Numbered from the stretch's first letter, positions 12,006 to 12,527 are shown. The stretch: 13,700 nt of DNA from a virus (IMGVR_UViG_2603880148_000005:1-13700), one strand, 5' to 3'. Numbers and translations: made by a program. The notes: a model not told the origin generated them from the sequence alone.

Positions 12006-12197
12006 ATGAGTACAGCCCTTTCCCCGATAATTTCTGAATTTGAAACAGTCGAACAAGAAAACAGCTATAACGAATGGTTGCGAACCAAAGTGGCAGCAAG
12101 CCTCTCAGATCCCCGTCCTGCAATTCCACATGACGAAGTAATGGCTGAAATGGAAAACCTTATTGCTCAATTAGCTGCAACGAACAGGAGTGAGTAA
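12006..12197 (+). CDS. Antitoxin of a type II toxin-antitoxin pair (partner of the ParE/RelE-family toxin)
   Basis: 63 aa. Strong SD GAGGAGG 7 nt upstream of the ATG. Stop codon overlaps the toxin start (TAATG). Confidence 0.6.
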   Translation: MSTALSPIISEFETVEQENSYNEWLRTKVAASLSDPRPAIPHDEVMAEMENLIAQLAATNRSE

Positions 12198-12487
12198 TGC
12201 TGCCCATTTTATGGCTACCTTCTGCACGTGATGATTTACGTCAGATCGTAGCCTATATTGCTAAGGAAAACCCTCCCGCTGCACGTAGACTAAAAATACG
12301 CATTGAAACATCAGTTTTGTCACTTACTGAACACCCTTATCTGTACCCACCGAGCGAAAGAGTTCCAAGTCTTCGTGAGATAGTGACTCATCCTAACTAC
12401 ATAATACTTTACCGAGTAACAGCATCTAACATCGAGATCGTAAATGTAGTTCACTCACGAAGACAGTATCCAAACAAAACCTGTTAA
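12197..12487 (+). CDS. ParE/RelE-family toxin
   Basis: 96 aa, MLPILWLPSARDDLRQIVAYIAKENPPAARRLKIRIETSVLSLTEHPYLYPPSERVPSLREIVTHPNYIILYRVTASNIEIVNVVHSRRQYP. Matches the ParE/RelE pattern (W.p.A..DL..I..YIA; RE.V..nY.I.Y.V...I..V.H.RR). Confidence 0.8.
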   Translation: MLPILWLPSARDDLRQIVAYIAKENPPAARRLKIRIETSVLSLTEHPYLYPPSERVPSLREIVTHPNYIILYRVTASNIEIVNVVHSRRQYPNKTC

Positions 12488-12501
12488 TCCTTCCTGTCAA
12501 C

Positions 12502-12527
12502 AACCACCTTCGGGTGGTTTTTTTCTT
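12502..12527 (+). terminator. Rho-independent terminator ending the repressor/toxin-antitoxin transcript
   Basis: AACCACC(ttcg)GGTGGTT hairpin at 12502-12519 followed by TTTTTTTCTT. Confidence 0.7.

Follow-up and report, generated by a model that had tools for sequence, protein, structure and literature searches.

What do two small genes do that lie directly behind the repressor of a prophage, in the interval where lambda carries rexA and rexB? The question is raised by positions 12006-12527 of a stretch of 13,700 nucleotides, here called the window, which represents the early region of a lambdoid prophage. A sequence-only reading of this DNA had recognised a ParE-family toxin-antitoxin (TA) pair, expressed together with the repressor, and had suggested for it an abortive-infection or a stabilisation function in the lysogen. 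Based on profile searches, structural homologues and related loci, the stretch can with high probability be described as a PaaA-ParE type II TA cassette, which together with the upstream repressor forms a paaR-paaA-parE three-component module of a Qin/Rac/CP-933-like lambdoid prophage of E. coli. Such a system is not new and has a name: the three-component system was described by Hallez 2010 (cited through PMC8630535 and PMC4803016) and Jurenas 2021 (PMC8630535), and the module, its placement behind a CI-analogue repressor, its operon and its addiction property were published between 2010 and 2021 for prophages of O157:H7. In the O157:H7 prophage CP-933P, PaaR2 acts like lambda CI, YdaS like Cro and YdaT like CII. 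The genes paaR2-paaA2-parE2 form one operon, in which the paaR2 mRNA is leaderless like that of cI. A further promoter, PL933P, with matching operators, lies beyond the toxin gene and is regulated by PaaR2 and YdaS. The CP-933P locus is bistable (all PMC8630535).

The minus strand of the window encodes a Q antiterminator, RusA, a DUF968 protein, a NgoMIV-type restriction-modification pair, the sok RNA, QueH, DUF977 and DUF1627 proteins, lambda-P-like and DnaT/O-like replication proteins, YdaT and a Cro-like HTH protein. The plus strand carries, divergently, the repressor, antitoxin and toxin genes, followed by ydfA, ydfB and ydfC (Table 1). The order ydaT, ydaS, repressor, antitoxin, toxin, ydfA was constant in every related locus examined, among them O104:H4, O157:H7, a UPEC strain and the isolated phage Evi, and beyond ydfA the examined loci have dicB or kil and an exonuclease gene. 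In the window, similarity to related prophages ends at about 13303, just past ydfC (13072-13290), and a fragment of an IS3-family transposase follows on the minus strand (ORF 13346-13693). The leftward operon is thus interrupted by an IS3-family insertion, ahead of the place where dicB/kil and the exonuclease gene usually follow. In the type II restriction-modification pair (4904-6920, minus strand), the endonuclease is of the NgoMIV family (Pfam 1e-126) and its partner is a C5 cytosine methyltransferase; apart from this pair, positions 578-1627 encode an N6/N4 DNA methylase. The sok antisense RNA (6851-7031, minus strand; Rfam RF01794, 61 bits for a gathering score of 59) indicates a hok/sok type I TA locus, and therefore a second addiction module on the prophage; related loci annotate hokD. 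A gene for the epoxyqueuosine reductase QueH (7099-7785, minus strand; Pfam 1e-65) is located among the early genes, and a tRNA gene (456-528, minus strand; Rfam 72.5 bits) near the Q antiterminator, on the side of the late genes.

Table 1 Features of the module and its immediate surroundings in the window.
Feature	Position	Strand	Evidence or remark
ydaT-like gene, CII analogue in CP-933P (PMC8630535)	10696-11121	-	Pfam YdaT_toxin 7.4e-10
ydaS/cro-like HTH regulator, divergent from repressor	11105-11380	-	Pfam HTH_3 9.4e-06
OR-like operator pair, 15-bp palindromes AATAGCAnnnnTATT	11413-11427, 11438-11452		25 bp start to start
PRM-like promoter, TTCAAA-17-TAGAAT	11452-11480	+	9/12 scan match, no better than chance alone
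Repressor, 166 aa, CI analogue, third component	11488-11988	+	Pfam HTH_3 1e-9; NCBIfam DicA C-terminus
Shine-Dalgarno sequence of antitoxin, GAGGAGG	11992-11998	+	7 nt 5' of ATG at 12006; consensus strength
PaaA-type antitoxin, 63 aa	12006-12197	+	PF21217 PaaA2, NF050103
ParE-family toxin, 96 aa	12197-12487	+	PF05016 ParE_toxin
Intrinsic terminator ending the operon, tIMM-like position	12502-12527	+	Terminator scan, folding; starts 15 bases after toxin ORF
OL-like operator pair, same palindrome AATAGCAnnnnTATT	12536-12550, 12561-12575		25 bp apart, directly after terminator
PL-like promoter site, TTTACA-17-TATTGT	12549-12577	+	Overlaps OL-like pair; points into ydfA-ydfB-ydfC

Genes and signals of the antitoxin-toxin pair

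The antitoxin matched the Pfam family PaaA2 (PF21217) at 1e-21 and 77.1 bits (cut-off 27) and NCBIfam NF050103, a model named RelB family, at 92.8 bits, and over 53 residues it shares 72% identity with PaaA2 (PDB 3ZBE and 5CW7). The toxin matched the Pfam family ParE_toxin (PF05016) at 6.6e-18 and 65.5 bits (cut-off 23). It has four matches in the PDB, all deposited as ParE or 'plasmid stabilization system' chains, the best of which is ParE2 of E. coli O157 (5cw7_B), with an identity of 65% over 92 amino acids. The family assignment is settled by this identity to solved and characterised proteins. The profile search therefore upheld the proposal of a ParE-family pair, giving a ParE toxin, for which ParE2 is the closest solved structure, and a matching PaaA-type antitoxin. 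Profile searches of Pfam and NCBIfam gave no match of the antitoxin to HTH, RHH, AbrB or ParD families, and the antitoxin is predicted to be a short protein that lacks a DNA-binding domain. Canonical ParD-ParE systems (RK2, Caulobacter, Vibrio) share the toxin family and fold, and their antitoxin gene likewise lies upstream of the toxin gene. However, the antitoxin of the window is not a ribbon-helix-helix ParD, and it would not autoregulate through a DNA-binding domain of its own.

The signals around the two genes agree with what had been read from the sequence. The repressor ORF ends in a TAA stop codon (11986-11988), and the gap of 17 nt that separates it from the antitoxin (11989-12005, TCTGAGGAGGTAAAAAC) holds the strong Shine-Dalgarno sequence that had been claimed for the antitoxin. 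The stop codon of the antitoxin, TAA (12195-12197), shares one nucleotide with the ATG of the toxin (12197-12199), forming TAATG, so the reported overlap of toxin start and antitoxin stop is present. The terminator that had been noted behind the toxin has a GC-rich stem of 7 bp (AACCACC/GGTGGTT) with a TTCG loop (12502-12519), followed by TTTTTCTT up to position 12527. The hairpin with its T-run matches the terminator scan; its folding energy is -10.4 kcal/mol, with a z-score against shuffled sequences of only -1.6. It is the single terminator of the operon, and none was found in the gap between repressor and antitoxin. From this short gap, which has neither a terminator nor a strong promoter, and from the experiments on the homologous operon (PMC8630535), we infer that repressor, antitoxin and toxin are co-transcribed. 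A candidate promoter of the TA pair itself, inside the repressor gene (11783-11812), matched 9 of 12 positions in a scan that performs at chance level, and it is not claimed here. Rfam gave nothing at the gathering threshold inside 12006-12527. With permissive E-values, the region 12480-12800 gave only chance-level matches to isrK, RalA and SLDE, far under their cut-offs.

When compared with diverged E. coli copies, the antitoxin and the toxin prove to be under strong purifying selection. Over both ORFs, the non-synonymous divergence is 6-9% and the synonymous divergence 48-78%, with a dN/dS of about 0.1 or less; for the antitoxin dN/dS is 0.08-0.11, while the toxin has a pN of 0.07-0.09 and a pS of 0.74-0.78. 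Together with Pfam scores of two to three times the gathering cut-offs, this selection indicates that the two ORFs are real genes and not chance reading frames.

Related copies in E. coli and phages

Of 5426 complete E. coli genomes, 620 carry PaaA-ParE-like pairs of any type at a query coverage of at least 80%. The exact allele of the window, at an identity of at least 99%, is present in 41 complete E. coli genomes, O104:H4 strains among them, in which RefSeq labels it as type II, with a RelE/ParE toxin and an antitoxin of the RelB family. The phage collection gave no match in a search for near-identical DNA, and its protein search returned only Escherichia phage Evi, which has a ParE2-type copy, and one weak match.

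O157:H7 genomes mostly carry the pair at two places, one of which is ParE2. The loci that were compared will be hereafter referred to by their labels, which include L002 (the second O157:H7 copy), L006 (paaR2-paaA2-parE2 of O157:H7), L007 (E. coli 2013C-4974) and L008 (phage Evi). L006 was identified as paaR2-paaA2-parE2 because its toxin is identical over all 92 amino acids to the ParE2 chain in the PDB and its regulator starts with MQKKE, the N-terminus sequenced for PaaR2 (PMC8630535). A paralogue, paaR1-paaA1-parE1, has been reported on CP-933M (PMC8630535), and by elimination L002 presumably corresponds to it.

L002 is the closest characterised allele to that of the window, with identities of 84% for the antitoxin, 88% for the toxin, 88% for YdaT and 100% for YdfA. 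Two co-varying classes can be distinguished in the alignment, in the C-terminal tail of the antitoxin and the N-terminal half of the toxin; the window groups with L002 and not with the ParE2-type copies. These classes fit the published absence of cross-neutralisation, which was reported for PaaA1 with ParE2 and for PaaA2 with ParE1 (PMC4803016).

In L007 (2169-3032), two PaaR-like regulators, a PaaR2-type followed by a PaaR1-type, are found in tandem upstream of a single PaaA-ParE pair. The second of them has an extended C-terminus that overlaps the start of the antitoxin. This arrangement resembles an intermediate of recombination between immunity types.

The repressor and its operators

The repressor is predicted to be a domain mosaic and only a partial PaaR homologue, composed of a lambda-CI-like head and a PaaR/DicA-type tail that are connected by a linker. 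The first 90 or so residues are homologous to the N-terminal domain of lambda CI (E about 1e-9 against PDB entries 7jvt, 1lmb and 1rio), and this head gave no match to the solved head of PaaR2 (7nkv/8c3k). Residues 107-162 matched the NCBIfam model of the DicA C-terminus at 1.5e-7, with 31.2 bits, far under the family cut-off of 101 bits. The last 50 or so amino acids align with all PaaR variants, including PaaR2. Because the Pfam search found no S24 peptidase domain in the repressor, RecA-dependent autocleavage is not expected; PaaR2 and DicA likewise lack this domain. The likeness to DicA, the repressor of Qin, extends beyond the tail, as the layout ydfA-ydfB-ydfC-dicB downstream of it is alike. 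The K-12 Qin locus is not known to have a TA pair after dicA.

The CI-like head type is found in 70 of the 5426 complete E. coli genomes, and the same 70 carry the full stretch from repressor to toxin. Among the loci, the repressor varies in its head, as do the cro-like gene and the operators, while the repressor tail, the antitoxin, the toxin, ydaT and ydfA are common to them. The product of ydaT is 100% identical in amino acid sequence to that of locus L003. The cro-like regulator, which has the same position as ydaS in L002-L007, is about 43% identical over 77 aligned residues to those of other immunity types. In the window, the CI-like head makes up a separate immunity type together with the cro-like gene and the operators, and since the remaining parts are shared, a recombination junction inside the repressor gene is implied. 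The CI-headed PaaR chimera is apparently a minor and undescribed variant of the third component. PaaR proteins have been regarded as CI analogues 'despite lacking sequence similarity', and a CI-like head on a PaaR/DicA tail provides a direct sequence link for this published view. The chimera also offers a natural case for studying head-swapping and immunity specificity.

The palindrome AATAGCAnnnnTATT, allowing at most one mismatch, occurs at five sites on both strands of the 13.7-kb window, in which 0.2 sites would be expected by chance. Four of them make the OR-like and OL-like pairs, and the fifth is a stray site with one mismatch at 6801. A candidate third, weaker palindrome, TAATAAnnTTATTA, was recognised by eye only at 11463-11476. 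The repressor, the antitoxin and the toxin are thus enclosed by the two operator pairs, with the terminator placed before OL and PL, and the assignment of the pair to the rexAB position is correct as a positional likeness only. The same motif method was applied to the related loci. In L006, the motif GTTTAGTGTTT, which is the published operator core of PaaR2 and YdaS, recurs clearly after the terminator, and the recovery of this published operator (GTTTAGT) serves as a positive control for the method. L002 and L003 have a different motif, ACAGTTTTTTATTGT, which is again clearly present after the terminator. For L004 and L007, the best common 15-mers have 3 mismatches and their recurrence after the terminator is weak. 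The operator motif differs between immunity types along with the repressor head.

The promoter scan gave 4 matches where 3.2 were expected by chance. The -10 element of the PRM-like promoter (TAGAAT, 11475-11480) ends 7 nt before the ATG of the repressor, with no usable Shine-Dalgarno sequence between them. This spacing suggests that the mRNA of repressor, antitoxin and toxin could be leaderless, as was shown for paaR2 and for lambda cI (PMC8630535). Since the head of this repressor is not of the PaaR type, such regulatory details, namely the number of operators, autoregulation and the leaderless start, are extrapolated from the homologue.

Between the PL-like promoter and the start of ydfA there is a leader of about 165 nt (12588-12756), which has equivalents in L001-L008 and is more than 90% conserved across all immunity types, and the operators just upstream of it differ completely between immunity types. 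Its consensus fold, with compensatory changes in 1 of 45 pairs and a positive covariation term, gives no support for a structured RNA, and the leader had no match in Rfam. Its conservation might reflect a nut-like site or a regulatory leader.

Comparison with known systems places the module close to paaR2-paaA2-parE2 of CP-933P (Sp12) of O157:H7 (Sterckx et al. 2016; 5CW7/3ZBE). The two have the same gene order, an equal position within the immunity region and divergent to ydaS-ydaT, a short antitoxin that appears to lack a DNA-binding domain, a ParE-family toxin and a homologous C-terminal domain of the regulator. They also share a spacing of start codon and -10 element suggesting a leaderless regulator mRNA, and operators that are repeated past the toxin at a PL-like promoter. 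However, the identity is only 65% for the toxin and 72% for the antitoxin, and the C-terminal tail of the antitoxin and the N-terminal half of the toxin fall into the other specificity class; the lambda-CI-like head of its regulator is unrelated to that of PaaR2, and the operator is AATAGCAnnnnTATT here and GTTTAGTAA in CP-933P. In the C-terminal region, the repressors of L002 and the window share about 54% identity over 76 aligned residues. The repressor of L002 has 133 amino acids compared with 166, and its head, cro-like gene and operators are of a different immunity type.

The likeness to lambda cI-rexA-rexB consists of cargo genes directly past the repressor, inside the interval from OR to OL, a terminator before OL/PL, a repressor head homologous to the N-terminal domain of lambda CI and, probably, expression of the cargo with the repressor in the lysogen. 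On the other hand, the module has no membrane protein and its repressor has no S24 autocleavage domain, while the phenotype known for such modules is addiction and not exclusion. In Pfam, the TA pair matched only PaaA2 and ParE_toxin, and no homology to RexA or RexB was found.

Role of the module

We are highly confident of the identity and the architecture of the module as a PaaA-ParE three-component system; its biological role can be described with less certainty. For the allele at 12006-12487, toxicity and SOS induction by the toxin, rescue by the antitoxin, Clp lability and addiction would be expected by extrapolation from ParE2 and PaaA2. During lysogeny, the CI-analogue repressor would bind the paired operators at OR and OL, would silence two operons, the cro-like ydaS/ydaT and the leftward ydfABC, and would control its own PRM-like promoter, all of which was shown for PaaR2. 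From this promoter, one transcript, probably leaderless, would carry repressor, antitoxin and toxin, in analogy to the paaR2-paaA2-parE2 operon. The antitoxin would be translated from its own strong ribosome-binding site, the toxin would be translationally coupled to it through TAATG, and the transcript would end at the terminator. Because PaaA has no DNA-binding domain, regulation would be delegated to the repressor, as shown in the homologue. PaaA would wrap around ParE and neutralise it, as seen in the structure of the homologous complex (5CW7).

PaaA2 is an unstable protein, degraded by ClpAP and ClpXP (PMC8630535). If the PaaA of the window is degraded in the same way, loss of the locus would free ParE. 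Freed ParE may then damage DNA or DNA topology and induce the SOS response; overexpression of ParE2 does induce SOS, and ParE2 co-localises with the nucleoid (PMC8630535). The gyrase poisoning of canonical ParDE systems is not established for ParE2, the nearest homologue. The net role would be that of an addiction module that penalises the loss or the replacement of the immunity region. The stabilisation function that had been suggested from the sequence has experimental support in the homologous CP-933P locus, where the module stabilises an unstable plasmid by post-segregational killing and was proposed to stabilise the immunity region (PMC8630535); the role at the level of the prophage is a published hypothesis. 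On balance, addiction or stabilisation is probably the main biological role of the cassette.

An anti-phage function, in which the pair would be a functional analogue of RexAB, is compatible with a role in addiction. A superinfecting phage that stops host transcription or boosts Clp would let PaaA decay, and ParE would kill or arrest the cell before phage release. The rexAB-like position between the repressor and OL/PL, the predicted expression with the repressor and the degradation of the unstable PaaA2 by Clp proteases would all suit this route, as would the company of other defence and addiction cargo on the prophage (restriction-modification and hok/sok). Furthermore, a physiological trigger did not come to light in CP-933P, which leaves room for such a function. 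However, a PADLOC scan of repressor, antitoxin and toxin gave no matches, homology to RexA or RexB is missing, the main paper on the system makes no mention of abortive infection or superinfection (PMC8630535), and a literature search gave no report of defence by PaaA-ParE. Experiments on the homologue directly support stabilisation and none supports defence, and we consider abortive infection an improbable account of the cassette. A related proposal is that of a guard against heteroimmune replacement of the immunity cassette, in which the PaaR tail would be portable together with the TA pair, as one unit onto which different DNA-binding heads, the CI-like one included, are swapped. It would fit the recombination junction inside the repressor, at which the varying head, cro-like gene and operators meet the conserved tail, antitoxin, toxin and ydaT. 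Taken together, a phage-triggered abortive-infection system or such a guard has a low likelihood.

The pair might also be an inert remnant in a decaying cryptic prophage, in view of the IS3-family element that interrupts the prophage from about 13303, and of CP-933P, where toxin activity went undetected at steady state, in either transcriptional state (PMC8630535). Against such decay, both ORFs are intact and well equipped with translation signals, dN/dS does not exceed about 0.1 in comparison with copies whose synonymous sites are near saturation, related pairs are as widespread as described above, and the homologue is toxic and addictive; we regard an inert remnant as very unlikely. The toxin could also be read as a ribosome-dependent mRNA endonuclease of the RelE type, and not as a DNA or topoisomerase poison of the ParE type. 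ParE and RelE are of one fold, the NCBIfam model of the antitoxin is named after RelB, RefSeq speaks of a 'RelE/ParE family toxin' and a 'RelB family antitoxin', and the toxin scores 27.6 bits with NCBIfam TIGR02385 (RelE_StbE). However, this score is under the cut-off of 27.9 and the match to ParE_toxin is far stronger, all PDB matches are ParE or 'plasmid stabilization system' chains with ParE2 first, and the SOS induction and nucleoid co-localisation of ParE2 point to a DNA-directed action. A RelE-type activity is likewise very unlikely.

With a ParE-type addiction or stabilisation module as the preferred reading, the significance of the locus lies in little beyond its correct annotation, as identical alleles are already listed in RefSeq as type II TA systems, the O104:H4 outbreak lineage included. 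In RefSeq, the antitoxin goes under 'RelB family' or 'hypothetical' and the repressor under 'HTH domain-containing', and the PaaA and PaaR identities are more informative. In phage Evi (LR597642.1), which carries a PaaR2-type module, CDS features are given only for the regulator and the antitoxin, and the ParE toxin ORF at 24917-25192 (3001-3276 of L008) is unannotated.
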